Positions 9,189 to 29,130 of a stretch of 64,000 nt of DNA are shown piece after piece. Under the pieces are notes generated by a model. That model had not been told where the DNA came from, did not search any database, and was given only the letters and a program-made list of their open reading frames with translations. The stretch comes from an uncultured delta proteobacterium. GTDB taxonomy: Bacteria; Desulfobacterota; Desulfobacteria; Desulfobacterales; B30-G6. The DNA lies in NCBI GenBank assembly GCA_963823335.1, contig CAWGLD010000001.1:1440001-1504000 (forward strand), read 5' to 3'. Positions within the stretch are counted from its first letter, which is position 1; every line of letters begins with the position of its first letter. A program made the position numbers and the translations under genes.

Positions 9189-9217
9189 TCGCGCGATAAC
9201 AACAGGTTATTAGTATC

Positions 9218-11496: not shown

Positions 11497-11498
11497 GC

Positions 11499-12197: not shown

Positions 12198-12364
12198 AAC
12201 GCCTGTACAAGGGACGATAATATGCTTGCAATAAACCTCCCGAGCAATTAATATCGCTCTGCAAAGGCTGCAAAGACATTTCTTTTTTGCTGACGTATCC
12301 TTTCTGGTATCTATCGGACTATGTTTTTCGTTCTATTCATAATTCAGAACAATGAGGAGGACCT

Positions 12365-13372
12365 ATGAAAAGATTCAGATTCATCCACCTGATGTTGGTC
12401 GCGATCGCATTATTGATCTGTTTCGGCACCCCGGCAATGGGTGCAAAACTAAGAATCGCCATGGTCACCGATGTGGGGGGTGTCAACGATCAGTCATTCA
12501 ACCAGTCGGCCTGGGAGGGACTCCAGCGATTGGAGAAAGACTTCGGTATCAACGTGGCATACAAGGAATCCAAGCAGGACGCGGATTATGCCCCTAATAT
12601 GGAAACCCTGACCGATGCCGGGTTCGATCTGATCTGGGGAATCGGTTTTCTGATGGGCGACGCCATCAAGACCACGGCACAAATCAATCCAGACCAGAAG
12701 TATGCCATCATTGATTTTGCCTATGGTCCTGAAACCCCCAAAAATGTGTCCGGTGTGGTATTCCAGGAAGAGCAACCCTCCTTTCTGGTGGGCTATATCG
12801 CCGGCAAAATGACGAAAACCAACAAAATCGGTTTTGTGGGTGGCATCAAGTTTCCCCTCATCGAAAGATTCGAATATGGCTATATGGCCGGGGCCAGGAT
12901 GGCCAATCCCAAGTGTGAAGTCCTGTCCCAGTACGCGGAATCTTTTACCGATGCTGCCAAGGGCAAAGCCATTACCAACAATATGTATCAAAAGGGTGCC
13001 GACATTGTTTTCCACGCCTCCGGCGGTGTCGGTGACGGCGTCATCGAAGCGGCCAAGGAAAAGGGCAAATGGGCCATCGGTGTGGACAAGGATCAAAACT
13101 TTCTGGCACCGGACAATGTGCTTACCTCGGCCATGAAACGGGTGGACAATGCCATATACGATGTGGGCCACAAGTTGAAAGAAGGTCAATGGAACGGTGG
13201 CGAAACCGTGGTTTACAATCTTTCCAACGACGGTGTCGGCATCGCTCCGACGTCTAAAAAACATGTTCCGGCCAATATTCTGGCCGAGGTGGATCAATTG
13301 GTCGCCAGGATCAAAAAGGGAGATTTCAAGGTACCCTCCACCAAGGCCGAATTCGATGCATTCAAGTTCTAA
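12365..13372 (+). CDS. BMP-family nucleoside ABC transporter substrate-binding protein (NupN/PnrA-like)
   Basis: Signal peptide; TDVGGVNDQSFNQSAWEG, IGVDKDQ and TSAMKRVD motifs. Confidence 0.93.
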   Translation: MKRFRFIHLMLVAIALLICFGTPAMGAKLRIAMVTDVGGVNDQSFNQSAWEGLQRLEKDFGINVAYKESKQDADYAPNMETLTDAGFDLIWGIGFLMGDAIKTTAQINPDQKYAIIDFAYGPETPKNVSGVVFQEEQPSFLVGYIAGKMTKTNKIGFVGGIKFPLIERFEYGYMAGARMANPKCEVLSQYAESFTDAAKGKAITNNMYQKGADIVFHASGGVGDGVIEAAKEKGKWAIGVDKDQNFLAPDNVLTSAMKRVDNAIYDVGHKLKEGQWNGGETVVYNLSNDGVGIAPTSKKHVPANILAEVDQLVARIKKGDFKVPSTKAEFDAFKF

Positions 13373-13482
13373 CCCGACTGGATAACGTCCTTGGCCACTT
13401 GTCTGATGTCGTTCCCCGGTTGTGCTTTGCATGGGCTCTGACCAAGCGCGCAGGGTTTAGAAAGATCATGGAAAACGAGCAA

Positions 13483-13510
13483 GCCGGCCCTTTTGAACAA
13501 CAGGGCCGGT
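13483..13510 (+). other. Intercistronic stem-loop after the binding-protein gene
   Basis: GCCGGCCCT...AGGGCCGGT inverted repeat with no U-tract; may stabilise upstream mRNA. Confidence 0.4.
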
Positions 13511-13590
13511 GACGCTTCCAATATCATCCCCACAAACGGACCCCGCCGGCGTCAACGCCTTGTACTGGAACGAAAACCCGCAAAGGAGAC

Positions 13591-15129
13591 ATGCATGTGA
13601 CGACCATCGATTTTTCCCAAAAAGTCGTTGAGATGATCGATGTAGTAAAAAAATTTGGTGATTTTGTCGCCAACGACCGGATCAGTTTAACGGTACACAA
13701 AGGCGAAGTGCATTCGCTCTTGGGGGAAAACGGAGCCGGCAAGACGACCCTGGTGAACTGTCTTTACGGTCTCTACCGTCCTACCCAGGGCAGGATTTGC
13801 ATCAAGGGGCAAGAGGTCGAAATCAGCGATCCCAATGTGGCTATCCAGCACGGTATCGGCATGGTTCATCAGCACTTCATGCTGGTGGATACCTTTACGG
13901 TTACCCAGAACATCATTCTGGGGAGAGAAACCACCAAAATGATGGGGATTCTCGATATAGCCGCTGCCGAGAAAAAAGTGTCCGAGATTTCCGAACGCTA
14001 CGGATTGGCCATCAACCCCCGGGACAGGATTCAAGACATCTCCGTCGGCAGCCAGCAACGGGTGGAGATTCTAAAGGCTCTCTACAGGGGCGCTGAAATT
14101 CTGATTCTGGACGAGCCCACCGCCGTTCTGACCCCCCAGGAGATCCAGGAGCTGGTGACGATTATCCGCAACCTCACCCAAGAGGGCAAGTCCATCATCA
14201 TCATCACCCATAAACTCCACGAGATCAAACAGATGGCCGACTATTGCACCGTTATCCGACGAGGTAAATTTGTCGATACCGTTGAGGTGGATAAGATCAC
14301 AGAACAGGAGCTGGCCTCCATGATGGTGGGTCGTGAAGTTTCCTTTATGGTGCAGAAAAAGGTTCAGCAAAAAGGGGCGCAGATTCTTGCCATCCAGGAT
14401 CTGGTGGTAAAGGACAACCGGGGTATTGCGGCTGTTAACGGGCTCAGTCTGTCGTTGTACAAAGGGGAAATTCTCGGTATTGCCGGGGTGGACGGCAATG
14501 GTCAATCCGAGCTTGTGGAGGCGCTGACCGGGCTGCGCAGGGTTGCCGGGGGAACCATCACCCTGCATGGCAAGGAGATCACCGGATCGAATCCCAAGGA
14601 AGTGATCAACCGCTGTAACATACGTACCATCCACGAAGACCGGCAGAAAAGAGGCCTGGTCATGGAGTTCGATGTGGCCGAAAATCTCATTCTGGAAACT
14701 TACCACGACAGCCCCTTTTCCAATCACGGGATGTTGAACCATGAGAAAATATATGCCTGGGCCGATCACTGCACCGAGGCGTATGATATCCGCCCCGCGA
14801 ATCCTTATCTGGCGGCCAAATCCCTGTCCGGAGGGAACCAGCAAAAGGTGATCATTGCAAGGGAGGTGAGCAACGACCCCGAAGTCCTGATTGCTTCCCA
14901 GCCCACGCGGGGTCTGGACGTGGGAGCCATCGAGTATGTCCACACGGCATTGGTGAATCAGCGGGACAGGGGTAAGGCGGTACTGCTGATATCCTTCGAT
15001 TTGGACGAGATCATGAATGTGTCTGATCGCATTGCCGTCATTTTCGAGGGTAAAATTGTGGGAATTGCCGATGCGATCGGTGTCGATGAGAACGAAATAG
15101 GCCTCATGATGGCAGGGGGCAGCCCATGA
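13591..15129 (+). CDS. Nucleoside ABC transporter ATP-binding protein (two fused ABC domains, NupO-like)
   Basis: GENGAGKTT, ILDEPT, GVDGNGQ, LSGGNQQK and QPTRGLD motifs. Confidence 0.95.
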   Translation: MHVTTIDFSQKVVEMIDVVKKFGDFVANDRISLTVHKGEVHSLLGENGAGKTTLVNCLYGLYRPTQGRICIKGQEVEISDPNVAIQHGIGMVHQHFMLVDTFTVTQNIILGRETTKMMGILDIAAAEKKVSEISERYGLAINPRDRIQDISVGSQQRVEILKALYRGAEILILDEPTAVLTPQEIQELVTIIRNLTQEGKSIIIITHKLHEIKQMADYCTVIRRGKFVDTVEVDKITEQELASMMVGREVSFMVQKKVQQKGAQILAIQDLVVKDNRGIAAVNGLSLSLYKGEILGIAGVDGNGQSELVEALTGLRRVAGGTITLHGKEITGSNPKEVINRCNIRTIHEDRQKRGLVMEFDVAENLILETYHDSPFSNHGMLNHEKIYAWADHCTEAYDIRPANPYLAAKSLSGGNQQKVIIAREVSNDPEVLIASQPTRGLDVGAIEYVHTALVNQRDRGKAVLLISFDLDEIMNVSDRIAVIFEGKIVGIADAIGVDENEIGLMMAGGSP

Positions 15130-16253
15130 AATTGAGTGCGGGGCTTATAAGAAACAGATTTTTGAACGGTTCCCTGGGACTGACCCTGATTTCGATCTTG
15201 CTGGGATTTCTGTTGGGGGCCATCGTTCTGCTGGTGGCCGGTTTCAACCCTCTGGAAGCGTACTGGGTTATCCTCAAGGGGATCTTTTCACGCTCCAAAT
15301 ACATGTCCTACGTGATCATCTACGCCACACCCTTGATCATTACGGGGTTGTCCGTGGCCTTTGCCCTGCGTACCGGTCTGTTCAATATCGGTGCCGAGGG
15401 ACAATATATCGTGGGTGCCATTGTGGCTGCCGCCGCAGGCTATTTTTTCAAGCTGCCCCTGGTCCTGCATGTGACCGTGGCTGTGGGGCTGGCGATGATC
15501 GCGGCTGCAATCTGGGGCGGACTGGCTGGTTACATCAAGGCCCGTTTCGGGGTTCACGAGGTGATCTCCACCATCATGCTGAACTGGATCGCCCTCTACC
15601 TTTCCAATTTTGTGATTACCCTGCAAGCTTTCGGCAGTCAGGGGACCGGTAAATCCTATGCCATTCAGTCCACCGCCAGGATCAATCTGTTGAGTGACTG
15701 GAAGCTCTCAGAGGCCGGTTTCGAGTTTATGCGCAGCCATAGGGTACTGGGAGATATCCTCAAGACCCCCATCAATCTGGGTATCATCTTTGCCATCCTG
15801 CTGGCCGTTCTGGTGTGGTACATACTCAACAAGACCACCCTGGGCTATGAACTGCGGGCCGTCGGTTTCAATCCCCATGCGGCTGAAGCCGGGGGCATCA
15901 ATGTAAAGAAAAGCATGGTGATCTCCATGCTGATCTCGGGCGCACTCGCCGGAGCGGCGGGGGCCTTTCAGGTGCTGGGGGTCAGCCATCGCATCGCAAA
16001 ACTGGCTGCCATGGAGGGCTATGGGTTCGACGGCATCGCTGTCTCGCTGATCGGCAACAACACCGGGGCGGGCAGTGTTCTTGCAGGCCTTTTATTCGGT
16101 GCCCTGAAGTACGGAGGGTCAAAGATCCAGGACGTCATGCAGGCACCCACCGAGGTGATCAACATCATGATCGGAACCATTATTCTATTTGTGGCCATGC
16201 CGAAATTGATACGGCTGATCCTGACTATTTTAGAGAGACGGGCGAAGAACTGA
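15126..16253 (+). CDS. Nucleoside ABC transporter permease (NupP-like)
   Basis: GLFNIGAEGQ, HEVISTIMLNWI and GFDGIAVSL motifs; ATGA overlap. Confidence 0.93.
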   Translation: MKLSAGLIRNRFLNGSLGLTLISILLGFLLGAIVLLVAGFNPLEAYWVILKGIFSRSKYMSYVIIYATPLIITGLSVAFALRTGLFNIGAEGQYIVGAIVAAAAGYFFKLPLVLHVTVAVGLAMIAAAIWGGLAGYIKARFGVHEVISTIMLNWIALYLSNFVITLQAFGSQGTGKSYAIQSTARINLLSDWKLSEAGFEFMRSHRVLGDILKTPINLGIIFAILLAVLVWYILNKTTLGYELRAVGFNPHAAEAGGINVKKSMVISMLISGALAGAAGAFQVLGVSHRIAKLAAMEGYGFDGIAVSLIGNNTGAGSVLAGLLFGALKYGGSKIQDVMQAPTEVINIMIGTIILFVAMPKLIRLILTILERRAKN

Positions 16254-17206
16254 TGGAAGCAATCATAAAAGACATGGGATTTATTATCGGGACGACGCTG
16301 ATGTACTCGACCCCCTTGATGTTCACCTCCCTGGGAGGTGTCATTACCGAGCGCAGCGGTGTGGTCAACATCGGTCTGGAAGGCATGATGTTCTTCGGTG
16401 CCTTTGTGGGCGCCACCGTGGCTTATTTTTCCCACAGTCCCTGGCTGGGTTTTGTTTGTGCCGGGCTGGGCGGAGCGTTGCTGGGCTTGATCCATGCCAT
16501 CGCCTGCGTTTCCTTTGCTGCCGAGCAGATTGTTTCCGGAATTGCCATCAACTTTCTGGGGCCCGGTTTTGCCCTTTTCCTGAGCCGCCTGTTTTTTGAC
16601 GGGGCTACCCAGACTCTTACGATACCTGAAAAAATTCCTTTGCCTTTAAGCTTTTTGTTTGGAGAGGGAAAACTATTCAAATCCGCCGGCTTCATGGATC
16701 TCATGTTCAACCGCTTCGCCACCGTTTACCTGGCTTTTATCCTCGTAGCCGTGGTCTGGTTTGTGCTTTACAAGACCAAGATCGGTATGCGTGTCCAGGC
16801 CGTGGGGGAGCATCCCGAGGCAGCCGATACGCTAGGTATCAGTGTTTACCGTATCCGCTATGGCGCCGTCATGGTTTCCGGTTTTTTGGCCGGTCTGGGC
16901 GGGGCTGCCATGAGTATTGCAGTGGTCTCCCGTTTCAGCAATACCTTGATATCCGGGCACGGCTTTATCGCCCTGGCAGCCATGATTTTCGGCAAGTGGA
17001 AACCCCAGGGCGCCATGCTGGCCTGCCTGCTTTTTGGCGCTGCCAAAGGCGTGGAGATCTATCTGGGTGCCAGGGGGTTCCCGGTGCCTTCCAGCCTGCT
17101 GGCCATGCTGCCCTATATTCTGACCATCATCGTGCTGGTGGGTGTCGTGGGAAAGACCACGCCTCCGGCAGCCATTGGAAAAATTTTCGATAAAAGCGGC
17201 AAGTGA
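16253..17206 (+). CDS. Nucleoside ABC transporter permease (NupQ-like)
   Basis: ERSGVVNIGLEG, GEHPEAADTLG, GFIALAAMIFGKWKP and LPYILT motifs. Confidence 0.93.
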   Translation: MEAIIKDMGFIIGTTLMYSTPLMFTSLGGVITERSGVVNIGLEGMMFFGAFVGATVAYFSHSPWLGFVCAGLGGALLGLIHAIACVSFAAEQIVSGIAINFLGPGFALFLSRLFFDGATQTLTIPEKIPLPLSFLFGEGKLFKSAGFMDLMFNRFATVYLAFILVAVVWFVLYKTKIGMRVQAVGEHPEAADTLGISVYRIRYGAVMVSGFLAGLGGAAMSIAVVSRFSNTLISGHGFIALAAMIFGKWKPQGAMLACLLFGAAKGVEIYLGARGFPVPSSLLAMLPYILTIIVLVGVVGKTTPPAAIGKIFDKSGK

Positions 17207-17266
17207 AGAGACTTCTCTCCCGGCCTGAAATATCCCCATGACGATGACGACAAATGAAATAGCGGA

Positions 17267-17295
17267 TTGATCTTTATGGTTTTAATTCGTATACT
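17267..17295 (+). promoter_or_regulatory. Putative sigma70 promoter of the methyltransferase-gabT-aor-pylB-liv cluster
   Basis: TTGATC-N17-TATACT. Confidence 0.55.
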
Positions 17296-17420
17296 ACCTT
17301 AAGGTGTAAGGTCGACAATTCCTCGTTGTTTTAGGGGCGAAATGGAGAGCCCGCTTGGGGGTCTGCGCGGCTCTTCAATTATTTTTTTCAATCGAGAACA
17401 GCTGTAAAAGGAGAAAATTA

Positions 17421-18218
17421 ATGCTTATTGTTGGAGAACTCATTAATGCCAGCCGCAAAGCCATTGCAACGGCTATCGAAACACAGGATGGTGATGCCAT
17501 CAAAAAGGTTGCCCAGGATGAATTCGAGGCGGGTGCCCACTACATCGATGTAAACGCAGGTGTCTTTGTGGGCCGGGAGCCCGAGTATCTGACCTGGCTG
17601 GTGAAAACCGTCCAGTCTGCCGTCGAAGCACCCTGTTGTATCGACAGCCCCGATCCGAAGGCCATCGAAGCGGCCCTCTCGGTACACAAGGGAACACCCA
17701 TGATCAACTCCATTTCCCTGGAAAAAGAGCGTTACAACAGCCTGCTGCCCATTGTAGCCAACACGGACATGAAAGTTGTGGCGCTCTGCATGAGCGACGA
17801 GGGCATGCCCGAGACAGCCGATGACCGCATGGCTATTGCCGACAAGCTGGTCAACGGGCTTTTGCAAAAGAATGTTTCCATCGAGAATATTTATGTGGAT
17901 CCCCTGGTGCAACCGGTTGCCACGAACGAGACCTTCGGGGTTGAATTTCTGGAAACCATTGAAAGACTCACGCAAACTTTCAAGGGAATCCACACGGTTT
18001 GCGGGTTGTCCAACATCTCTTTTGGTCTGCCGAACCGGTCTTTTTTAAACCAGACCTTTATGAGCATGGCCATTGCCAAAGGGCTTGACGGCGCGATCAT
18101 CAATCCATTGGACAAAAAGATGATGGCCAACATCATTGCTGCCACTGCCCTGGCAGGTCAGGATGATTATTGCATGAATTATCTAAAGGCGTACCGGGCA
18201 AACCGTTTCGAGTTCTGA
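17421..18218 (+). CDS. Methyltetrahydrofolate:corrinoid methyltransferase (AcsE/MtqA-like pterin-binding protein)
   Basis: GELINASRK, DVNAG, IDS, INSIS, VDPL and GLSNISFGLPNR motifs; AGGAG RBS before ATG 17421. Confidence 0.9.
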   Translation: MLIVGELINASRKAIATAIETQDGDAIKKVAQDEFEAGAHYIDVNAGVFVGREPEYLTWLVKTVQSAVEAPCCIDSPDPKAIEAALSVHKGTPMINSISLEKERYNSLLPIVANTDMKVVALCMSDEGMPETADDRMAIADKLVNGLLQKNVSIENIYVDPLVQPVATNETFGVEFLETIERLTQTFKGIHTVCGLSNISFGLPNRSFLNQTFMSMAIAKGLDGAIINPLDKKMMANIIAATALAGQDDYCMNYLKAYRANRFEF

Positions 18219-18278
18219 TATCTCGGCGGATTGATATCGGCACGGATAACATGGAATTATCTATTATGGAGGGAAGAC

Positions 18279-19544
18279 ATGACGGAGCTCACAACCAATC
18301 AAGAACTGCAGACAATGCGCAGTGAGGTTATTTCCAACGGATACGCCAGTGGTACGGGCTGTTATATAGCCTCTGCCAGAGGGGCTTTGATCCAGGATGT
18401 GGAAGGCAAGGAGTATATCGACTTTGCAGGCGGGATTGCCGTGATGAACATCGGTCACAGCCATCCCAAGGTGGTGGCGGCCATCAAGGCCCAGGCGGAA
18501 AAATTCACCCATACCTGTTTCATGGTGACCCCGTATGCATCCCCGGTCCGCCTGGCCAAAAGGCTGTGCGAAATTACCCCGGGAGACTTTGCAAAGAAGG
18601 TCCTCTTTATCAACAGTGGGGCCGAGGCTGTGGAGAATGCCGTCAAGATCGCCCGTTACTATACCAAACGACCGGCGATCATCGTATTTGAAAACGGTTA
18701 CCACGGCCGAACACTGCTGACCATGACCATGACCAGTAAGGTCAAACCCTACAAACTGGGTTTTGGTCCCTTTGCCCCGGAGGTGTACCGCATGCCTTTC
18801 GGGGATGTTGTCGGTCCGGAGAAGCTTGAGGATTTTTTTATCAAGCACGTCAACCCCGAGGCGGTCGCAGCGGTGGTGGCGGAACCGGTTCAGGGAGAAG
18901 GCGGGTTCATCGCTCCCCCGGACGGATATTTCCAGAAACTGGTGGAGATCTGCCGGAAAAACGGTATTCTGTTCATCAGCGACGAGATCCAGACCGGTAT
19001 GGGCCGTACGGGCAAGATGTTTGCCATCGAGCACTGGGGCGTAGAACCGGACCTGATTACCGTGGCCAAGAGCTTGGCAGCCGGCATGCCCTTGAGCGCG
19101 GTTGTGGGCCGCCAGGAGATCATGGATTCCATACACCCGGGTGGGCTTGGCGGCACCTATGGTGCCAACCCCCTGGCCTGTGAAGCGGCCTTGGCCGTGC
19201 TGGACGTGTTCGAAGAAGAAAAAATGCTCGATAAATCGGTGGCCTTGGGCGAAAAACTGTTGGCCCGTTTTAAGACCTGGCAGCAGCAGTACGACATCAT
19301 TGGCGAAATCCGGGGCTTGGGCGCCATGCTGGGATTAGAACTGGTAAAGGGTCCAGAGTGTTCTCCTGCCGCAGAAGAGGCCAAAGCTCTGGCAGCGGCC
19401 TGTTTTGAAAACGGGTTGAGCATACTGGTCTGCGGTAGTTACGGAAACATCATTCGTGTATTGGCTCCTTTTGTCATTACCGATGAACAGTTGAATAAAG
19501 GTCTCGATATCATGGAAGCGTGTATCAAAAAGATCAGTGCGTAA
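18279..19544 (+). CDS. gabT: Class III PLP omega-aminotransferase (GabT/DavT-like)
   Basis: DFAGGIAV, NSGAEAVENAVK, YHGRT, EPVQGEGG, DEIQTG, AKSLAAG and GGTYG motifs. Substrate uncertain. Confidence 0.85.
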   Translation: MTELTTNQELQTMRSEVISNGYASGTGCYIASARGALIQDVEGKEYIDFAGGIAVMNIGHSHPKVVAAIKAQAEKFTHTCFMVTPYASPVRLAKRLCEITPGDFAKKVLFINSGAEAVENAVKIARYYTKRPAIIVFENGYHGRTLLTMTMTSKVKPYKLGFGPFAPEVYRMPFGDVVGPEKLEDFFIKHVNPEAVAAVVAEPVQGEGGFIAPPDGYFQKLVEICRKNGILFISDEIQTGMGRTGKMFAIEHWGVEPDLITVAKSLAAGMPLSAVVGRQEIMDSIHPGGLGGTYGANPLACEAALAVLDVFEEEKMLDKSVALGEKLLARFKTWQQQYDIIGEIRGLGAMLGLELVKGPECSPAAEEAKALAAACFENGLSILVCGSYGNIIRVLAPFVITDEQLNKGLDIMEACIKKISA

Positions 19545-19567
19545 TCTTTAAGTAGGGGAAAATACCA

Positions 19568-21349
19568 ATGCTGGGTATATATAATCGCATTTTAAAGGTG
19601 GATTTGACCAACAAAGCTTTTAAAATAGAGGACAACGGCATTCCATTATCCATTTATGAAACTTTTCTGGGAGGCAAGGGATTGGGTACCTACCTTCTCT
19701 ACAAGTATAACCCGCCGGGTGTTGATCCCCTTTCTCCGGACAATCACATTGTTTTTGCCACAGGTCCTGTAACAGGGAGTCGTATCTGGGGAAGCTGCCG
19801 GTATGGCGTCTTCACCAAGTCACCCCAGACCATGCTTTACTCGGAGTCCTATTCAGGCGGCAAGGCACCCGAAGCCCTGGACAGTGCCGGGTACGATGCC
19901 ATCGTCATTTCCGGTAAAAGCGCGGCCCCGATCGTGTTGTCTGTTCACCCGGAGGGTGTGACCTTCCATGATGCCGGCGATATCTGGGGAAAAGACACCT
20001 ATGACACCGAAGACATCCTGCTGGAGCGCTTCCGGCTGACCAACGAGACCTATGGGAAACCCGGGGCGGTGGTGATCGGGCCGGCTTCGGAGAATCTGGT
20101 CAAATTCGGGGTGATTGAAAACGATTACTGGCGCTCGGCGGGCCGTACGGGTGTGGGTACGGTATTGGGGGCCAAGCATCTTAAAGGGATTGTGTTTCAG
20201 GGAGATTGCCAGCGCCCTCTGGCGGATCCGGATGCGGTGAGCGTGTTCTCCCGTGAGCTTGCCATGGATAACAAGGAGAGTCCGGGGGTCAAGGCCTATA
20301 AAAGCATGGGCACCCCCATGATGGTCAAGCTGCTCAACAATGCCAAGGCATTTCCCACCCGGTACTGGTCTGCAGGTACGTGCGAGCACTGGGAGAAGAT
20401 CAGCGCCGATGCCCTGCACAATCAATGCGAGGTCAAACCCAGGGCTTGTCTTAAATGTTTCATGGCCTGTGGCAGGATGAGTCGTGTTCTGCAGGGACGC
20501 CATTCCGGATTGCGTCTAGAAGGACCGGAGTATGAAACCATTTATGCCTTTGGCGGGTTGTGCATGGTGGACAGCATCGAGGAGATCATCTATCTCAACG
20601 ATATCTGTGACCGCCTGGGGATGGACACTATTACCGCCGGCAATCTCTGTGCCTTTGCCATGGAAGCCGGGAAACGGGGCCGGATTGACCCGGCCATCGA
20701 TTACGGCGATGTGGACGCCATTGCTGATCTGTTAAAGAAAATTGCCTACCGGCAAGGGGTCGGCGACATTCTGGCCGACGGTATTCGACATGCCGCCAAA
20801 ATGTGGGACCTTGAAGAGATTGCCGTACATTCCAAAGGGTTGGAACCGGCCGGTTATGATCCCCGTGTTCTCAAAGGCATGGGTCTGGCCTATGCCACAT
20901 CGGACCGGGGCGCCTGTCACCTGCGTAGCACTTTTTACAAACCGGAACTGTCCGGTATGATTGCACCGGAAAAGATCCAGGGTAAAGCCAAAGTATTTGT
21001 CGACTTTGAAGATCGGCTGACGCTGTTTGATGCGCTGGTCTTCTGCAGATTTTATCGGGACATGTACGCGTGGGAACAGCTGGAGAAAGTTGTTCGCATG
21101 GTCACCGGTATCGATGTAGACAAGCCCGGGCTTCAGCAGATGGCTGCCGGCATATCCACGCTGGTGCGTCGCTTTAACATCAGAGAGGGCATGCGGCCCG
21201 AAGACGACGCTCTTTCTGCAGGGTTGTTCCGGAAATTACATGGGGCCGATAATCAACTCACCAAGGACGAGCTTGACTACATGCTCAAAGACTATTACCA
21301 GCTTCGGGGGTGGGATGAAAGAGGGATACCGTTTCTGGAATGCGAATAG
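19568..21349 (+). CDS. aor: Tungsten-dependent aldehyde:ferredoxin oxidoreductase family protein
   Basis: FLGGKGLG, AGRTGVGTVLGAKHLK, CLKCFMAC, EYET, DRLGMDTI, YDPR and RGACH motifs. Confidence 0.93.
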   Translation: MLGIYNRILKVDLTNKAFKIEDNGIPLSIYETFLGGKGLGTYLLYKYNPPGVDPLSPDNHIVFATGPVTGSRIWGSCRYGVFTKSPQTMLYSESYSGGKAPEALDSAGYDAIVISGKSAAPIVLSVHPEGVTFHDAGDIWGKDTYDTEDILLERFRLTNETYGKPGAVVIGPASENLVKFGVIENDYWRSAGRTGVGTVLGAKHLKGIVFQGDCQRPLADPDAVSVFSRELAMDNKESPGVKAYKSMGTPMMVKLLNNAKAFPTRYWSAGTCEHWEKISADALHNQCEVKPRACLKCFMACGRMSRVLQGRHSGLRLEGPEYETIYAFGGLCMVDSIEEIIYLNDICDRLGMDTITAGNLCAFAMEAGKRGRIDPAIDYGDVDAIADLLKKIAYRQGVGDILADGIRHAAKMWDLEEIAVHSKGLEPAGYDPRVLKGMGLAYATSDRGACHLRSTFYKPELSGMIAPEKIQGKAKVFVDFEDRLTLFDALVFCRFYRDMYAWEQLEKVVRMVTGIDVDKPGLQQMAAGISTLVRRFNIREGMRPEDDALSAGLFRKLHGADNQLTKDELDYMLKDYYQLRGWDERGIPFLECE

Positions 21350-21407
21350 TGAGCGCTCATGTACAGCCGGGAACCCGGTAAACCACCATATAAAGACCTA
21401 TTGATTG

Positions 21408-22487
21408 ATGACTTTATCGACCCTACATCTCAAAAACATGTTGTCCGACGTTCAACTAGGCCGCAAATTGAGTGCGGCCGATACGGTTCATTTATTGAGC
21501 CTGGAGTATGAAGATACCCTGGAGATGGTGTTTGAGGCCGCTCGGAACCTTCGTAAAACAAATTTTGGCCGTAAGATATTTACCTACGGCTTTGCCTATA
21601 CCAGCACATTCTGTCGTAACGACTGCATCTTCTGCTATTTCCGTCACTCCAACAAGCAGCCGCAGCGGTATCGAAAAGAGGTCCGGGATGTTCTGGAAAT
21701 TGCCAGGTACATGTCCAGGGAAGGGGTCAATCTCATGGATTTGACCATGGGAGAGGATCCACGGTTTCAGGATTCTAAAAACGGGGCCATGGATGCCCTG
21801 GTTCAACTGGTCAAAGACATCAAGGCCGTGACAGAGTTGCCTGTTATGGTATCCCCTGGTGTTGTTCCGGATGAAACCCTGGCCATGTTGGCTGCCGCCG
21901 GTGTCACCTGGTACGCCTGCTACCAGGAGACCCATAATCCGGAACTGTTTAAAACCTTAAGAATCGGGCAATGCTTTGAAGAGCGTCTGGAGAAAAAGCG
22001 GGTGGCCAAAAAACTGGGACTGCTGATTGAAGATGGGATTTTAGCCGGTGTGGGTGAGTCGTCGTCGGACATCGCGCATTCCATCCAGGTGATGCGCACC
22101 CTTGATGTGGATCAGGTTCGGGTCATGAAGTTTGTGCCACAGCCCGGAACACCCATGGCAGCGCATGCTGGGGAAACGTCACTGCGTGAGTGTCTTGTCA
22201 TCGCCGTCTTGCGCTTGTCTTTTCCTGATCGCTTGATTCCGGCATCTCTGGATGTGGATGGTCTGGCGGGATTGAAGATGCGTTTGAATGCCGGTGCCAA
22301 TGTCATTACTTCCCTGGTGCCCCCGGATTTTGGCCTTTCGGGTGTGGCGAACAGTGACCTGGATATTGAAAATGCCAATCGGACCATGGCCGGGATACGC
22401 CCCGTACTGGAGGATTGCCATCTTAGCGCTGCCAAAAACATAGACTATCTATCATGGGTACGGGCACGTCAAGATGCCTTTTTGTAG
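21408..22487 (+). CDS. pylB: Methylornithine synthase PylB (radical SAM lysine mutase)
   Basis: STFCRNDCIFC (CxxxCxxC) plus PylB-type blocks DLTMGEDP, PVMVSPG, YQET, LRIGQ, EDGIL.GVG, VRVM.F.PQ.GTP, RLIPASLD.DG, RLNAGAN..TS and GVAN, as I recall them from Methanosarcina PylB; about 360 aa. Confidence 0.9.
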   Translation: MTLSTLHLKNMLSDVQLGRKLSAADTVHLLSLEYEDTLEMVFEAARNLRKTNFGRKIFTYGFAYTSTFCRNDCIFCYFRHSNKQPQRYRKEVRDVLEIARYMSREGVNLMDLTMGEDPRFQDSKNGAMDALVQLVKDIKAVTELPVMVSPGVVPDETLAMLAAAGVTWYACYQETHNPELFKTLRIGQCFEERLEKKRVAKKLGLLIEDGILAGVGESSSDIAHSIQVMRTLDVDQVRVMKFVPQPGTPMAAHAGETSLRECLVIAVLRLSFPDRLIPASLDVDGLAGLKMRLNAGANVITSLVPPDFGLSGVANSDLDIENANRTMAGIRPVLEDCHLSAAKNIDYLSWVRARQDAFL

Positions 22488-22579
22488 GTAATTGTCCGCT
22501 GAGGGAAACCCAAAAACAGGTTGTGTTTTTTCGGTTATATGACGTATATATCGAGTTTGTTACAAATTAGGATGATGGA

Positions 22580-23296
22580 ATGCTCAAAGCGATCAATGTG
22601 ACAAAAAAATTTGGTGAACTCAAGGCGGTGAATGACCTCAGCTTTGAAGTTCAGGAAGGACAGATCTTTGGTATTGCCGGGCCCAACGGTGCTGGAAAAT
22701 CAACGGTTTACAACCTCATTACCGGTTTTTACCCTTATGAGGGTACCATCGAATTTATGGGCCGCAACATAGCCGGCCTGCCGCCCTATCGTATCGCCAA
22801 AGCCGGTATTGCCCGTACGTTCCAGATCCCGCAGGTTTTTCCCAGTCTGACCGTGCAGAAAAGCATTTCTGTGGGCAGCCGTTTCGGTGCACGCGGCGGT
22901 CTCGATGCGGCCCATGTAGACGAGGTGATTCGTTTTGTGGAACTTGAAGAGGAGCGTTTACAAAACACCGGTCTTTTAAACCTCCTTTCCAAAAAGAAAC
23001 TGATGATCGGGGCCGCCCTGGCTACGAAGCCCAGAATTCTCATGCTGGACGAACCCATGGGGGGATGCAATGCCAATGAAATAAGAAGCCTGATGGATCT
23101 GATCAAGCGTATCAACCAGGAACTGGGTGTTACGATCATTATTATAGAGCATTTTATGAAGGTCTTGACTGAACTGACCGAAAAACTGCTGATCATCGAA
23201 TCCGGGACAGAGATCTGCTGCGACACACCCCAAAAAGCAGTCGACAATCCAAGGGTGATCGAGTGTTATCTAGGGGATTCATATGCTAAATGTTAA
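22580..23296 (+). CDS. LIV-type ABC transporter ATP-binding protein (LivG-like)
   Basis: GPNGAGKS, GIARTFQ, LDEP, IIEH and VIECYLG motifs. Confidence 0.92.
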   Translation: MLKAINVTKKFGELKAVNDLSFEVQEGQIFGIAGPNGAGKSTVYNLITGFYPYEGTIEFMGRNIAGLPPYRIAKAGIARTFQIPQVFPSLTVQKSISVGSRFGARGGLDAAHVDEVIRFVELEEERLQNTGLLNLLSKKKLMIGAALATKPRILMLDEPMGGCNANEIRSLMDLIKRINQELGVTIIIIEHFMKVLTELTEKLLIIESGTEICCDTPQKAVDNPRVIECYLGDSYAKC

Positions 23297-23987
23297 AAAA
23301 TTGAATGCCTATTATGGCCAGTCGCATGTTCTGAAAGATGTCTCTATTGCGGTCGAACAGGGTCAGGTAGTGGTCATTTTGGGGCCCAATGGACATGGCA
23401 AGAGTACCCTCTTGAAATCCATCTGCGGCCTGGTGAACAAGGCCAACGGCCGTGTCATCTACAAAGGGCACGACATCATGGGCCAGGCAACCGAAAAGAT
23501 CGTCAACACGGGCCTGATCTATATCGCTGAAAATCGAGAGCTGTTTCCCCATATGACCGTTTTGGAAAATCTCAAACTGGGTGCCTATTCCAAGAATGCC
23601 CGATCCCGGGAAAAGAAAAATCTGGAACGGGTATTCGATCTATTCCCGCGATTGGTGGAACGTCAGAAGCAATCTGCTTCGACCATGAGCGGCGGCGAAG
23701 CTCGCATGCTGGCAGTGGCGCGGGGATTGATGTCCAACGCTGATTTTTTGTGCATCGATGAGCCCTCCTTGGGACTTCAGCCCAGTTTGCGTCACGAAAT
23801 TTTTTCCACCATCAAGCGGATCAACGAGCAAGGCAAGACGGTTCTTCTGGTGGAACAGAATATTCCTCAGATAACTGAACTGGCTGATAGAATTTATGTC
23901 ATGGAGGAAGGGCGGATTTCCTTTGAGGGGAGCAAGGACGAAGCAATGGGGAATAAGGATTTAAAGGAAATTTTTTTAGGAATGTAG
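23283..23987 (+). CDS. LIV-type ABC transporter ATP-binding protein (LivF-like)
   Basis: GPNGHGKS, LFPRL.ER, MSGGE, DEPSLGL and LLVEQN motifs. Confidence 0.92.
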   Translation: MLNVKKLNAYYGQSHVLKDVSIAVEQGQVVVILGPNGHGKSTLLKSICGLVNKANGRVIYKGHDIMGQATEKIVNTGLIYIAENRELFPHMTVLENLKLGAYSKNARSREKKNLERVFDLFPRLVERQKQSASTMSGGEARMLAVARGLMSNADFLCIDEPSLGLQPSLRHEIFSTIKRINEQGKTVLLVEQNIPQITELADRIYVMEEGRISFEGSKDEAMGNKDLKEIFLGM

Positions 23988-24221
23988 CAAATTTTGATCA
24001 TCTCTAATGCGTTGATCAAAATATAGGGTACAAGGGTCCGAGGGTGATACAAGGGTTATAGGGTGGCTAACAGCTAACAACGGACAGTGGCATCCAAACT
24101 TCTAAGCATCCTATCTTCCCGGCATACAAGGGGGTCGACGGTACCAGGGTACGAGGGTGGTGGTTTGACACTTATAATCTGTGTAGCAACTGACTAAGCT
24201 TGGCATAGAAGGTGACAAAGC

Positions 24222-25124
24222 ATGTTTAGCGAAGACACCATTTTATTGTTTTATGAAATTACGGACGTCATTATCGCCGGCTTGTCCACCGGTTCCGTAT
24301 ACGCCCTGATGGCCGTGGGCATGACCTTGGTCTATGGTGTGACCAAGGCGTTCAATTTCGCCTATGGAGATTTTTTCAATATGGGCGGCTATTTTGCGTG
24401 GATATTGATCTTTGGCATCGGTCTTCAATTCGGCGGATATCTGACAGTTCTGCTCATTGTGATGCCGCTCATGTTTGTTGTAGGATACGGACTTGAAAAA
24501 CTCATGATTGCACCCTTGAGGAAGCGGGATGATTGGGAAAACAAGGTCATGATGCTGACTCTGGGTCTGGCGCTCTTTCTGACCAGCCTATATTCGGTGA
24601 TCTTCGGTGTGCGTATGAAATCGTTGCCCCCCATCCTAGAAGGGACGATAGAGGTAGGCCAACTGGTGTTTGCCCACCAGGACATTTTGATTTTCTTCAT
24701 GTCATTGGGCGGCATCCTGGTTTTTGGGTGGATGCTTAACAACACCCGCCTCGGCTTGGCTGTACAAGCTGTAGCCCAGAACCCTATGGGGGCCAAAATC
24801 GTGGGGATTCCACAGGAGCGTATTTTTGCTGCCACCTTTGCCATTTCAACCGTCATGGTGGGATTTGGCGGAATCCTATTGAGTCAGAAGTGGTTCATCA
24901 ATCCCAATTCAGGCGGCACGATCATGATCAAGGCCTGGGTAGTAACCGCATTCGGCGGAATGGGTTCTATCCGCGGAGGTCTTTATGCTGCTTTCATCAT
25001 TGGCATGCTGGAAGCCTTTGTGGGTTGGATATTCGGTATGAGCTACGGCATTATTGCGCTTTTTATTCTTTTGTTGGCGACCCTGGCGTTGAGGCCTCAA
25101 GGTTTAATGGGAAAAGGCGACTAA
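24222..25124 (+). CDS. LIV-type ABC transporter permease (LivH-like)
   Basis: YALMAVGMTLVYGV..FNFAYG and FGGMGS motifs. Confidence 0.92.
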   Translation: MFSEDTILLFYEITDVIIAGLSTGSVYALMAVGMTLVYGVTKAFNFAYGDFFNMGGYFAWILIFGIGLQFGGYLTVLLIVMPLMFVVGYGLEKLMIAPLRKRDDWENKVMMLTLGLALFLTSLYSVIFGVRMKSLPPILEGTIEVGQLVFAHQDILIFFMSLGGILVFGWMLNNTRLGLAVQAVAQNPMGAKIVGIPQERIFAATFAISTVMVGFGGILLSQKWFINPNSGGTIMIKAWVVTAFGGMGSIRGGLYAAFIIGMLEAFVGWIFGMSYGIIALFILLLATLALRPQGLMGKGD

Positions 25125-25127
25125 ACG

Positions 25128-26087
25128 ATGCGTATGAAACATATGGCAATCATCATCGGTGTTTCCTATGGAATTATGGCTATCCTGCCTATTATTGTAG
25201 GGGATATCCCCTTTATCATGAATATTTTGATCATGTGCCTCATCTGGGCTGTGGTGGCCTCCTGCTGGGATGTCATGATGGGGTTTGCAGGTATTTTCTC
25301 ATTCGGTCAGGTGGCTTTTTTTGTCATAGGTGCCTATTGCTCCGGTATTCTATCCATTGACCATCATGTGACACCGGTATTGTCCATTCTGATGGCCGGT
25401 CTGTTTACAGCAGGTGTGGGCGTTCTTGTGGGGTTGCCCTGTCTGAAACTGGCTGGGCCCTATGTAGCCCTGGTGACCTTTGGTGTGCACATGGCTTTGC
25501 AGCCCACATTAAGGGGTGAGATCGGCATTGCCCTGGGGTCCGGTGGCTCGGTGGGTCTTCTGACCATCCCTCCCATCAGTATATTCGGCTATACGTTCAG
25601 TTCAGCCAATATTGTCCCGACTTTTTACCTGACGCTTCTGGTATCCCTTGTCTGCGCACTGATTATTATGTTTGCCATTAAATCTTACTGGGGCGTTGCC
25701 TTTCTGGCCCTTAAAGATTCTCAGGATTTTGCCATGAGCCTGGGTGTCAGTGCATTTAAATATAAGTTGATGGTCTTTGCCCTGACCTCTTTTTTAACCG
25801 GTATCATTGGAGCATTTTACGGTCATTTTTACGGAGTGCTTTCTTTTCGCATGCTGGATCTGGATCTTTTCAGCATCTTGATGGTCATGATGCTGGTGGG
25901 CGGCTTGGGACATTTTCCCGGCGCTATCCTGGGTGCATTCCTGGTCGTCGCAGGCAGCGAACTCATGGCGCCTCTGGGCGCATACCGGGCTGTGGCCATG
26001 GGTGCTTTGGTGGTCATTCTGGTGTTGGCCCTACCAAACGGTGTTATGGGCCTTTTTTTAAGGCGTTCGGCAAATAGAATCGTATGA
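25128..26087 (+). CDS. LIV-type ABC transporter permease (LivM-like)
   Basis: GFAGIFSFGQVAFF..GAY, L.GPYVAL.T, VGGLG and PNG motifs. Confidence 0.92.
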   Translation: MRMKHMAIIIGVSYGIMAILPIIVGDIPFIMNILIMCLIWAVVASCWDVMMGFAGIFSFGQVAFFVIGAYCSGILSIDHHVTPVLSILMAGLFTAGVGVLVGLPCLKLAGPYVALVTFGVHMALQPTLRGEIGIALGSGGSVGLLTIPPISIFGYTFSSANIVPTFYLTLLVSLVCALIIMFAIKSYWGVAFLALKDSQDFAMSLGVSAFKYKLMVFALTSFLTGIIGAFYGHFYGVLSFRMLDLDLFSILMVMMLVGGLGHFPGAILGAFLVVAGSELMAPLGAYRAVAMGALVVILVLALPNGVMGLFLRRSANRIV

Positions 26088-26159
26088 TAATTTTATGAAA
26101 CCCGACGCTGTCGCTATAATTTGGATCTAACTTTAATTTCAACAAAAGGGAGGTAATGT

Positions 26160-27380: not shown

Positions 27381-27412
27381 CGGCAGCAAACATTTCTACA
27401 TATATTTGTTAC

Positions 27413-27454
27413 CTGGTCAGTCCGGACATTTTGTGAAACGTCCGGGCTGACCAG
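27413..27454 (+). terminator. Long stem-loop at the end of the liv cluster (possible terminator)
   Basis: CTGGTCAGTCCGGAC...GTCCGGGCTGACCAG, about 15 bp stem; no clear U-tract. Confidence 0.5.
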
Positions 27455-27589
27455 TACGCCTCTCGAAATGTCTGATAATGAAAATCTTTAAGTAATAATT
27501 GTAAAGTACTCTGTTGGATTCATACCAGCTAAATCTTGCTTGAAATTGGATGAGAAAACCATCGGTGGCAAGAGATAACGCGGGAAAGC

Positions 27590-28879
27590 ATGGCCCATAC
27601 CGTTGAACAATCTGCCTACCGGCGCTTGACCGAGCGCCTGAACCGTTTTCCCCAGGGTGCGCCTCCCTCCAAGCTCCTTACAAAAATTTTGATGGTGTTG
27701 TTCAAGGAAAAGGACGCAGAACGGGTTTCTCTGCTTCCCATCAGACCTTTTACGGTGCGCCGGGCTGCCCGCATCTGGCAAGTGCCCAACAGCGCGTCAC
27801 GCAAAATTTTGGATGGCCTTGCACAAAAAGCCCTGCTGGTGGATTTTGAGGTTGCGGGAGAAATGCACTACGTCCTCCCGCCGCCCATGGCAGGTTTTTT
27901 CGAGTTCTCCATGATGCGTATTCGTGATGACATCGATCAGAAACTACTGGGGGAGCTTTTTTTCGAGTATCTCAATGTCGAAGAGGATTTTGTAAGGGAG
28001 CTTTTTACCCGGGGAGAAACGCAGCTGGGAAGAACCTTTGTGCACGAACCTGTACTGTCGGCGGAGAACGCCTTGCATGTCCTCGACTATGAAAGGGCCA
28101 GCAGCGTGATAAAGACCGCTTCCCACAGGGGTATCAGCATGTGTTACTGCCGACACAAGATGATGCACAAGGGGAGGGCCTGTGAGGCACCCATGAACAT
28201 CTGTATGACCTTCAACACGACAGCCGAATCCCTGACCCGGCACGGTCATGCACGGGCGGTGGATATTTCTGAAGGGTTGGATCTGCTGGCCCAGGCTCAC
28301 GAATCCAATCTGGTGCAGTTTGGCGAAAATGTACGCCAGGGTGTCAACTTTATATGCAACTGCTGTGGCTGCTGCTGCGAGGCCATGATCGCAGCGCGTC
28401 GATTTGCTGTCATGCAGCCTATTCATACCACCAATTTTTTGCCGGTTGTTCAAGAGAATACCTGTGACGGCTGTGGCAAATGTGTGGCTCTTTGTCCGGT
28501 GGAGGCCATGACCCTGGTATCTGCCAATCATCCGCACAAACCGAAGAAAAAGATCGCCAGAATCGACGAAGACCGCTGTCTTGGTTGCGGCGTGTGCGTG
28601 AGAGCCTGTACGAGATGTAATTCGATCTCCATGATTTCCCGGCGGCAGCGGATCCTTACACCGTTGAACGGTACCCATAGGGCTGTGGTGATGGCTCTGG
28701 AGCGGGGCAAGCTTCAACATCTGATCTTCGATAACCGGGTTCTCTGGCACCACCGTGCTTTGGCCGCTGTTTTGGGCGCAATCCTTCGTTTGCCGCCTGT
28801 CGACCGGGTGCTGGCCACCCAACAGGTGAAATCGCGCTACCTGGAGGCCCTGGTGGAGCGTTTTGAACGCGGGAAATGA
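27590..28879 (+). CDS. 4Fe-4S dicluster domain (Fe-S binding) protein
   Basis: CYCRH, ICNCCGCCC, CDGCGKCVALCP and CLGCGVCVRAC motifs. Confidence 0.85.
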   Translation: MAHTVEQSAYRRLTERLNRFPQGAPPSKLLTKILMVLFKEKDAERVSLLPIRPFTVRRAARIWQVPNSASRKILDGLAQKALLVDFEVAGEMHYVLPPPMAGFFEFSMMRIRDDIDQKLLGELFFEYLNVEEDFVRELFTRGETQLGRTFVHEPVLSAENALHVLDYERASSVIKTASHRGISMCYCRHKMMHKGRACEAPMNICMTFNTTAESLTRHGHARAVDISEGLDLLAQAHESNLVQFGENVRQGVNFICNCCGCCCEAMIAARRFAVMQPIHTTNFLPVVQENTCDGCGKCVALCPVEAMTLVSANHPHKPKKKIARIDEDRCLGCGVCVRACTRCNSISMISRRQRILTPLNGTHRAVVMALERGKLQHLIFDNRVLWHHRALAAVLGAILRLPPVDRVLATQQVKSRYLEALVERFERGK

Positions 28880-28887
28880 TGCCGTGA

Positions 28888-29130
28888 TGCTTACTTTTCG
28901 CAGAGAAATTCCAAGGACGTGGTTTTGGATGCGAAGCACTGAACCAGATCCGTACGCTGGCAAGGTCATGGAATTGTCGCGCCATCAGGGTTGCTGTCAT
29001 GGAAAACAACATGCCTGCCCTCATGTTTTGGGAGAAAGAGGGCTTTGGCCGGTTGTACCGGAAAACCTTAAAGGGATGTATCGGTGACGTTATTGTAATG
29101 GAAAGCCTTCTCCACCTTCCCACCAATTAG
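28888..29130 (+). pseudogene. 5'-truncated GNAT acetyltransferase fragment
   Basis: An unlisted frame reads LLFAEKFQGRGFG...VMENNMPALMFWEKEGF...stop. It is preceded by an in-frame TGA at 28885 and the N-terminal half is missing. Confidence 0.65.

Follow-up and report, generated by a model that had tools for sequence, protein, structure and literature searches.

Gene content of the locus

The stretch analyzed here (the window) comprises the 64,000 nucleotides C1:1440001-1504000 on the 2.0-Mb contig C1 of a metagenome-assembled genome of an uncultured sediment delta proteobacterium of the Desulfobacterales (4.37 Mb, 11 contigs, 93.9% complete, 4.6% contamination). A gene for a pterin-binding methyltransferase (MeTr) lies here directly before genes for a GabT-family aminotransferase, a tungsten-type aldehyde:ferredoxin oxidoreductase (AOR), the methylornithine synthase PylB and a LIV-type ABC transporter (Table 1; coordinates without a contig prefix are window positions). 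The first four genes lie on the same strand with spacers of 60 nucleotides (nt) between MeTr and GabT, 23 nt between GabT and AOR, and 55 nt between AOR and PylB. A preliminary description of the sequence had named these four products, and the open reading frames (ORFs) and their families are confirmed. It had also remarked that the window holds no corrinoid protein, MttB-family or acs gene; Pfam scans of the larger window ORFs show none, and none of the 26 MTTB matches and 18 B12-binding matches of the genome falls inside the window.

Table 1 Features of the MeTr-gabT-aor-pylB-liv locus
Feature	Position	Strand	Family, domain or signal
Leader of the inserted segment	17231..17420	+	Promoter-like site 17267-17295; hairpin and T-run 17357-17385 before the MeTr ribosome-binding site
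MeTr, predicted methylcorrinoid:tetrahydrofolate methyltransferase (MT2; MtqA/MtgA-like, non-acs), 265 aa	17421..18218	+	NF005719
GabT-family class-III aminotransferase (4-aminobutyrate:2-oxoglutarate type), 421 aa	18279..19544	+	TIGR00700
Tungsten-type aldehyde:ferredoxin oxidoreductase (AOR), 593 aa	19568..21349	+	AFOR_N, AFOR_C
PylB, methylornithine synthase (radical SAM)	21405..22487	+	TIGR03910
LivG- and LivF-type ABC ATPases	22580-23296, 23283-23987	+	ABC_tran, BCA_ABC_TP_C
LivH and LivM permeases	24222-25124, 25128-26087	+	BPD_transp_2
LIV-type substrate-binding protein	26160-27380	+	Peripla_BP_6
Fe-S protein, 429 aa, 2x[4Fe-4S] ferredoxin domain	27590..28879	+	Fer4 families only

The MeTr frame opens at ATG 17421, preceded by an AAAGGAG ribosome-binding site, and GabT likely starts at ATG 18279 after GGAGGG rather than at TTG 18231. 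GabT scores 548.8 bits against the equivalog model TIGR00700 (cut-off 506.65) and stays under the respective cut-offs of four other GabT models. Its matches in the PDB are 4-aminobutyrate (GABA) aminotransferases with E values from 1e-130 to 1e-119 (4atp, 7.4e-130; 3q8n; 1sf2, 3.6e-119). This places it in the GABA-transaminase family, with a predicted activity on omega-amino acids. The AOR carries both Pfam domains at full length (AFOR_N, 225.4 bits; AFOR_C, 389.1 bits) and aligns over residues 1-590 with 9mqx (1.5e-109) and 1aor (2.8e-94); the match to the formaldehyde:ferredoxin oxidoreductase (FOR) of Pyrococcus furiosus, 1b25, is weaker than those to the AOR entries (5.2e-85), and the score against the YdhV-type equivalog NF007354 is far below its cut-off (168 versus 868). 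PylB is identified by its TIGR03910 score (455.4 bits, cut-off 348.2), by the CX3CX2C motif kept in the alignment with 3t7v (2.7e-82), and by the presence in the genome of pylT, pylS, pylC, pylD and TAG-bearing methyltransferase genes. The operon contains neither an Aldedh nor an APC permease gene; the AOR and the LIV-type ABC transporter stand in their places.

Identity of the methyltransferase

MeTr matches Pterin_bind (PF00809) at 78.2 bits (cut-off 25.5) and NF005719 at 359.4 bits (cut-off 259), the latter over 263 of 268 positions. Its best match in the PDB is 4o0q (2.4e-56), deposited as 'Dihydropteroate synthase DHPS', which we take to be the O-demethylase MT2 of Desulfitobacterium hafniense; the AcsE structures 2yci (2.4e-52) and 2e7f (1.9e-42) follow. 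D75, N96, D160 and N198 of MeTr align with D75, N96, D160 and N199 of 2e7f, the Moorella thermoacetica MeTr, presumably its folate-binding and catalytic residues. MeTr shares with these three structures its length, the TIM-barrel family and the Asp and Asn residues that in 2e7f bind tetrahydrofolate (THF). It differs in lying outside an acs or O-demethylase cluster and in falling below the cut-off of the AcsE-specific model NF040758 (156.2 versus 370 bits).

Only three pterin-binding genes occur in the genome: MeTr, a presumed FolP (297 bits over the whole model), and a gene of 293 aa, 35% identical to MeTr, that ends a complete acs cluster on contig C4 (RACo, CdhD, CODH, ACS, CdhD/FeS). The preliminary description had considered that MeTr might be the only AcsE of this genome. 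We reject this assignment, because the separate 293-aa copy sits in the acs cluster and MeTr stays below the NF040758 cut-off.

Relatives were compared in a sample of 41 genomes that includes this one (G000) and its nearest relative (G001). The ORFs of the other genomes were called by a simple script, and the sampled genomes are kin, so that counts of co-location are not independent. A MeTr match is found in 36 of the 41, the orthologues being 56-91% identical, and nearly all relatives have in addition an AcsE-type paralogue that is about 35% identical to MeTr. The orthologues of 68-91% identity are flanked by a hydantoinase-like gene and a corrinoid protein, stand immediately ahead of pylT/pylS, or, as in G011 and G013, occur beside MttB and MtbB. 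They are encoded together with a corrinoid protein and a substrate methyltransferase in ten genomes (G002, G004-G007, G009, G011, G013, G016 and G024), which is the case neither in the window nor in G001. G016, from another family, has the order corrinoid protein, MeTr, a MetH-activation-domain-like gene, GabT, corrinoid protein, pylSc-B-C-D. Such surroundings are those expected of a second methyltransferase (MT2) that would unload methyl-corrinoid proteins onto THF. They also agree with the role given to MeTr in the preliminary description, where such enzymes pass methyl groups from MttB-family demethylation to THF. An MtrH-type methyltransferase in an O-demethylase-like cluster on contig C5 represents a possible second route to folate.

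Demethylation and pyrrolysine genes elsewhere in the genome

If MeTr acts as an MT2, its partners would be encoded outside the window. The MTTB family has 26 matches in the genome; 19 are near full length, and six of these carry one in-frame TAG. There are also five MtbB genes, each with a TAG, one MtmB homologue that lacks an in-frame stop and adjoins a corrinoid protein, four or five small corrinoid proteins, and four RACo-type activases. The MttB-family enzymes that the preliminary description had postulated elsewhere, possibly dependent on pyrrolysine (Pyl), are hence present. Its explanation of pylB by this dependence is also supported: pylT, pylSc, pylC and pylD form a group on contig C2 that lacks pylB, the gene in the window is the only TIGR03910 match of the genome above cut-off, and this sole copy serves the pyl cluster elsewhere. 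The canonical order pylT-pylSc-pylB-pylC-pylD, present in G002, G010, G016 and G024, does not occur here. Contamination is a caveat for the split, and the same split is also seen in congeners.

TAG-bearing MtbB genes are found in 17 of the 41 genomes at one to 12 copies per genome, and MtmB homologues in 16 of the 41, all of the latter without an in-frame stop (non-Pyl forms). The primary-amine products of MtbB therefore lack the canonical route through a Pyl-type MtmB. This gap fits, without proving it, a sequence of demethylation, transamination and aldehyde oxidation.

Several arrangements were observed around these genes. Each MtbB gene of this genome lies near an MttB-family gene, and three of these partners have an in-frame TAG. 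At C7:386001-405000 two non-Pyl MttB genes flank histidine-utilization-like genes (formiminotransferase-cyclodeaminase parts, an amidohydrolase, an aromatic amino acid lyase and a urocanase), and a second urocanase is found near MtmB (L029); the C7 group may represent a pathway for hercynine (histidine betaine) or for ergothioneine. In G008 and G009 pylB follows an Opp transporter and a CN-hydrolase and lies beside a glycyl-radical enzyme cluster, its neighbors including a sigma-54 activator, a glycyl-radical enzyme with its activase, and an APH-family kinase. That cluster may be of the choline type that forms trimethylamine (TMA). IS200-like transposases flank pyl clusters.

Relocation of the methyltransferase gene

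The order MeTr-GabT-AOR-PylB-Liv occurs only in this genome and in G001, whose MeTr is 91% identical. G005 and G006 have the nucleoside permease, GabT, AOR, PylB, LivGFHMK and the Fe-S protein in the same order and no MeTr; G004 shares this synteny and lacks both MeTr and AOR. Homology to these three genomes ends near 17230 and restarts near 18268, and therefore about 1.04 kb (about 17231-18267) has been inserted. Five congeners (G004, G005, G006, G007 and G009) present what corresponds to the donor site: a divergent Pyl-type MttB, the hydantoinase-like gene, MeTr, the corrinoid protein, (pylT) pylSc, pylC and pylD. At this old site on C2 of our genome the hydantoinase and corrinoid genes are now neighbors, and the spacer between them retains a 40-nt relic that is 82.5% identical to the MeTr 3' end. 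G002 begins its group as the congeners do and continues with an AOR. MeTr has been relocated, and the comparison indicates that the gabT cluster is older than its arrival. The preliminary description had MeTr heading the gabT-aor cluster. The position is real, but it is a recent one, confined to G000 and G001, and congeners keep gabT-aor-pylB-liv without it.

The hydantoinase/oxoprolinase-like (ASKHA) protein of about 670 aa (C2:81269-83278), between the Pyl-type MttB and the MeTr/corrinoid/pylT genes, also stands at the orthologous places in G002, G004-G007, G009 and G024. It may be an ATP-dependent activase or act on a substrate.

The conserved gabT-aor core

GabT and AOR orthologues are both present in 17 of the 41 genomes and are adjacent in 12 of these 17. 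A wider scan of AOR loci, with one genome per species, gave 80 loci (L-numbers), mostly from genomes labeled as Desulfobacterota, with 56-87% AOR identity. A GabT neighbor, counted at ≥50% identity, accompanies AOR at 43 of these loci; among the 62 with ≥3 kb of upstream sequence the number is 40. LIV-type transporter genes occur at 28 loci. The usual order of the module is sigma-54 activator, GabT, binding protein, LivHMGF, AOR.

The genome also encodes a natural fusion of the two activities. The 1054-aa protein at C1:696612-699773 (minus strand) comprises a class-III aminotransferase at residues 76-456 and a full AOR at residues 475-1051. It is one frame also in G007 (93% identity), G010 (90%) and G024 (79%); the G005 version is broken into three pieces. 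The fusion provides independent evidence for the two activities working in sequence. We read the GabT-AOR pair, from its sequence relationships, as a predicted ferredoxin-linked counterpart of GabT with a semialdehyde dehydrogenase. Literature searches that combined this oxidoreductase with aminobutyrate and its semialdehyde, or with gabT in the context of sulfate, returned no report, and neither did searches for GabT or AOR with pyl or MttB.

The fusion gene is followed by a ferredoxin-like gene and by genes of an ABC transporter. The AOR orthologue at G025:C27:31979-33748 (63% identical) contains one in-frame TAG; no PylB was found in G025, and this AOR may be a pseudogene or reflect a sequencing error.

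Joining of gabT and aor to methyl-transfer and pyl genes

Thirteen of the 80 AOR loci have methyl-transfer neighbors and six have pyl neighbors. In the AOR tree the linked loci are spread over at least six subclades, all within a clade of 51 rows from Desulfobacterales. Their gene orders differ. L102 reads GabT, pylS, thioesterase, pylB, pylC, AOR, pylD and, further on, RACo, with spacers of at most 56 nt except one of 315 nt. L101 has MttB (with TAG), corrinoid protein, MeTr, GabT and pylS, followed at some distance by pylB, pylC and AOR. L093 has Liv genes, GabT, MtbB (with TAG), corrinoid protein, AOR and pylS-B-C-D, and L107 an AOR paralogue, GabT, MtbB and AOR, with pylS-C-D beyond. The order in L109 and L110 is MttB, MtbB, corrinoid protein, activator, MttB, AOR, and that in L127, L130 and L137 is MttB, GabT, AOR. 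A similar association is found a second time in our own genome, at C1:1097123-1102878, where a 611-aa AOR paralogue and the start of a non-Pyl MttB share 4 nt; 1.3 kb further along, after a GntR regulator on the opposite strand, comes a class-III aminotransferase. Genes for ETF and a DAO-type flavoprotein lie near this group.

Expression and regulatory signals

Contigs from RNA libraries carry no information on strand or level, and DNA can be present in such libraries. With this limit, 16 estuary metatranscriptome runs contain part of 17200-22600, and in four of them (X1-X4) the contigs cover 29-30 of the 30 bins of 15000-29500 at 95-99+% identity. One X4 contig (17020-18756) extends from the upstream permease, the last gene of a nucleoside cluster, through MeTr into GabT; X2 and X3 contigs also bridge MeTr and GabT, and an X1 contig runs from the AOR end through the whole of PylB to 22567. 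The insertion is therefore present in the field population. The contigs across MeTr-GabT and AOR-PylB are compatible with read-through; among the contigs listed none bridges GabT-AOR, an absence that carries no weight either way. The preliminary description had asked whether MeTr is transcribed apart from gabT, and the bridging contigs, strand-blind and possibly from DNA, join the two.

The leader of MeTr has the promoter-like site and the terminator-like hairpin of Table 1. Rfam returned no match at gathering thresholds in the whole window and two chance-level matches in a permissive scan of 17100-17500; the leader is without a known riboswitch. A sigma-54 promoter pattern matched 77 times against 70.6 expected, and in none of the spacers before MeTr, GabT and livG. 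With the sequences upstream of 19 methylamine-related genes of the genome, the leader shares only words of 9-11 nt, at about the chance rate, and no common operator emerged.

The left edge of the MeTr insertion (17231) is also where one of the X1 contigs ends. Contigs of X1, X2 and X4 carry an identical foreign sequence just before 22567, between pylB and livG, which suggests a strain variant in which this junction differs.

A proposed role for the operon

We tentatively favor a reading to which we give somewhat less than an even chance. MT2 and pylB, the two single-copy components that Pyl-dependent demethylation shares, would have come together in an operon that imports a GABA-type amine, probably a demethylated product, and oxidizes it with ferredoxin as acceptor. 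The LIV-type ABC transporter would import a primary amine of the GABA or omega-amino-acid type, and GabT would move its amino group to 2-oxoglutarate. The tungsten AOR, in place of an NAD(P)-dependent semialdehyde dehydrogenase, would then convert the semialdehyde to the acid and reduce ferredoxin. MT2 would take the methyl group from corrinoid proteins loaded by MttB and MtbB encoded elsewhere and pass it on as methyl-THF to the Wood-Ljungdahl pathway. Co-expression would be the likely reason for the arrangement, MT2 and the first pyrrolysine step being supplied with the enzymes that dispose of the demethylated skeleton. The gene identities, the move of MeTr, the conserved gabT-aor pair and its recurrent linkage to pyl and methyl-transfer genes are established; we infer both the flow from demethylation through GabT to AOR and the identity of the substrate. 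The preliminary description had proposed catabolism of N-methylated omega-amino acids, which is plausible for this cluster from its predicted functions. The gene repertoire and the linkage of GabT-AOR to methyl transfer speak for it, but the module also exists in PylB-free genomes. Gamma-butyrobetaine, 5-aminovalerate betaine and methyl-lysine as substrates are guesses.

A number of observations weigh against such a role. PylB lies within 10 kb of GabT/AOR in only six of the 17 PylB-bearing genomes (of 41), and five of these six belong to one genus. The position of MeTr is recent and confined to two genomes. None of five gabT-aor genomes tested has a PylB above cut-off; the basic job of the module is therefore independent of methylated substrates and demethylation. 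A 26-row AOR clade (Desulfobulbales, Desulfovibrionales) lacks methyl-transfer and pyl neighbors, and the LIV transporter of the window is not orthologous to that of the widespread module (28-34% LivH/M identity). The MtbB genes beside GabT in L093 and L107 are 65-70% identical to the ordinary MtbB of pyl clusters, as are the MtbB genes not beside GabT; we searched here for a specialized MtbB paralogue beside GabT, and none is visible. A terminator-like hairpin at the pylB 3' end (22462-22479) means that the transporter genes may be a separate transcript, and the RNA-library contigs, which may contain DNA, give neither strand nor level. From the enzymology, in the part of PMC8604678 drawn on here, characterized MttB-family enzymes remove a single methyl group, and Eubacterium limosum does not use 4-dimethylamino- or 4-methylaminobutyrate.

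The main rival to this role is co-location without metabolic flow, which we hold to be distinctly less than even but a serious contender. Under it gabT-aor-liv would be an ordinary module for GABA and other omega-amino acids, or for polyamine-derived amines, beside which pylB and, later, MeTr landed by rearrangement, with at most a shared regulation such as scavenging of organic nitrogen and carbon. The wide occurrence of the gabT-aor module without pyl or methyl-transfer neighbors and the recent arrival of MeTr agree with it. The stretch from deoC to the acyl-CoA dehydrogenase gene is syntenic across the genus, and the linkage there may therefore be simply inherited. Because pylB has another context in G008 and G009, it is mobile within the genus, and the IS200-like transposases around pyl clusters are in line with rearrangement. 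Against this, GabT, AOR or both are found mixed in many orders with genes for corrinoid proteins, MttB, MtbB and MeTr and with pyl genes; AOR, for example, stands between pylC and pylD, and GabT has MeTr on one side and pylS on the other. Chance landing is unlikely to recur in this manner in at least six AOR subclades. That the single-copy MT2 and the single-copy pylB are both found in one operon also argues against it.

A bolder form of the favored role, in which these Desulfobacterales would mineralize betaines and other N-methylated amines completely under anoxic conditions, we consider unlikely. Non-Pyl MttB enzymes would take the first methyl group, the expanded Pyl-type MttB and MtbB paralogues would act on dimethylamino- and methylamino-compounds beyond TMA and dimethylamine (DMA), and the leftover primary amine would be converted to a dicarboxylate by the dedicated GabT/tungsten-AOR pair. 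With gamma-butyrobetaine as the example, the resulting 4-dimethylaminobutyrate and then 4-methylaminobutyrate would be demethylated by Pyl-type paralogues. If such mineralization takes place, it would account for the building of GabT-AOR into pyl and methyltransferase operons and for the drawing in of MT2 and pylB.

It is improbable that GabT and AOR act on the pyrrolysine pathway itself, removing or recycling (3R)-3-methyl-D-ornithine, D-ornithine or the ring-opened pyrroline aldehyde (delta-transamination followed by oxidation would lead to 3-methylglutamate), or that PylB doubles as a lysine mutase that opens lysine degradation. The gene order would suit this: pylB directly follows gabT-aor in G000, G001, G005 and G006 and gabT in G004, AOR and GabT are interleaved with pyl genes in L101 and L102 (AOR between pylC and pylD, GabT before pylS). 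The class-III family of GabT also includes the aminotransferases for ornithine and acetylornithine. However, GabT exceeds the cut-off of the GABA-transaminase equivalog and not those of the ornithine models, the same GabT-AOR pair is common in PylB-free genomes, and the sole pylB must serve Pyl synthesis for the TAG-bearing genes. Oxidation of an aldehyde intermediate would, moreover, oppose Pyl formation.

Still less credible is a replacement of Pyl-type MtmB, in which GabT would transaminate the monomethylamine remaining after MttB and MtbB to formaldehyde and AOR, acting as a formaldehyde:ferredoxin oxidoreductase, would form formate. No stop-bearing MtmB homologue was found in the 41 relatives searched, in which TAG-bearing MttB and MtbB are numerous, GabT stands directly beside MtbB in L093 and L107, and AOR does match the FOR 1b25. 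Yet GabT is a good match to GABA transaminases, which bind a carboxylate, and the best family matches of AOR are AORs and not FOR. The non-Pyl MtmB homologue beside a corrinoid protein may do the monomethylamine job or another one, and we know of no physiological transamination of methylamine.

That MeTr is a second AcsE, with no part in methylamine use and supplying methyl-THF to the acetyl-CoA synthase CoFeS protein, is suggested by the shared pterin-binding family and the AcsE matches of MeTr, and is very hard to reconcile with its NF040758 score, the acs cluster's own 293-aa copy, the co-occurrence of both types in nearly every relative (about 35% identity between types against 56-91% among orthologues) and the corrinoid, MttB, MtbB and pyl neighbors of the orthologues.

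Comparison with known systems

The enzyme type of MeTr is known; its setting is new. In the part of PMC8604678 drawn on here, E. limosum MtqA, MtqC and RamQ work with MtyB, MtcB and MtpB on gamma-butyrobetaine, carnitine and proline betaine, and one MtqA, encoded apart, serves these several MttB enzymes. A pterin-binding corrinoid:THF methyltransferase shared by several MttB-family enzymes and encoded separately is also the arrangement proposed for our genome. As far as that part goes, demethylation in E. limosum stops after one methyl group, the tertiary amine is excreted, and no aminotransferase, AOR or pyl gene is linked. In our genome, in contrast, MT2 is found with GabT, AOR and PylB, and Pyl-type MttB and MtbB are present.

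Marine Deltaproteobacteria, the same kind of organism, were treated by Kivenson et al. 2021 (PMC8318568). In the part of that work considered here, a MetH-family neighbor of a Pyl-type TMA methyltransferase and corrinoid protein was proposed to methylate THF and so to feed the Wood-Ljungdahl pathway, the second methyltransferase being called uncharacterized; the main text mentions neither an aminotransferase nor an aldehyde. Unlike in those clusters, pylB lies here away from pylSCD, and MT2 and pylB are inside the gabT-aor operon.

The classical counterpart of the core is the gabDTP system or GABA shunt of E. coli and others, in which the transaminase GabT is followed by oxidation of succinic semialdehyde to succinate and is encoded with an uptake system. 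The present operon differs in having a tungsten-type AOR for the NAD(P)-dependent GabD, a LIV-type ABC transporter for GabP, and the addition of pylB and MT2. AOR and FOR of P. furiosus (1aor, 1b25/1b4n) belong to the same enzyme family as our AOR. FOR oxidizes glutaric dialdehyde as well as succinic semialdehyde, and its structure was determined with glutarate; by analogy it would be a precedent for acid-substituted aldehydes as AOR substrates. Unlike the P. furiosus enzymes, the AOR of the window represents a bacterial subfamily with a fixed GabT neighbor, of which a fused aminotransferase-AOR paralogue exists.

Among the major substrates that derive from osmolytes in marine and estuarine sediments are betaines and methylated amines, and their use is usually credited to methanogens. 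Were the proposed role true, a lineage of the sulfate-reducer type would strip all methyl groups into folate and burn the skeleton by way of an aldehyde oxidoreductase that reduces ferredoxin, competing with methanogens for these compounds and diverting carbon from methane. Complete mineralization, if real, would extend the substrates of pyrrolysine enzymes beyond the three simple methylamines. MeTr is a candidate for the shared second methyltransferase of bacterial Pyl-dependent systems, and the GabT-AOR module, with its natural fusion, is a candidate ferredoxin-linked version of the GABA shunt. The location of pylB, the committed step of pyrrolysine synthesis, in a catabolic operon and not with pylSCD bears on how Pyl supply is matched to demand.

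Transporter, Fe-S protein and neighboring genes

The LivG/LivF region is syntenic in G001, G004, G005 and G006. The closest solved relative of the LIV-type binding protein is 3h5l (1.2e-27), deposited under a generic name, and its matches to other amino-acid binders are weak. The Fe-S protein is kept after livK in the same four genomes. For this protein Pfam and NCBIfam give only the ferredoxin domain and assign no family to its N-terminal part, and Atlas gives only generic Fe-S names; it is a candidate electron partner of AOR.

Directly upstream of MeTr, on the same strand, the window holds a nucleoside-catabolism cluster (4871-17206) with two PNP/UDP-type phosphorylases, a phosphopentomutase, a pyrimidine-nucleoside phosphorylase, a cytidine deaminase, deoC and a Bmp/PnrA-type ABC transporter. 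On the other side, an acyl-CoA dehydrogenase with a C-terminal rubredoxin-like domain (RUBY_RBDX) is encoded on the minus strand at 29289-30626, and is syntenic in G005.

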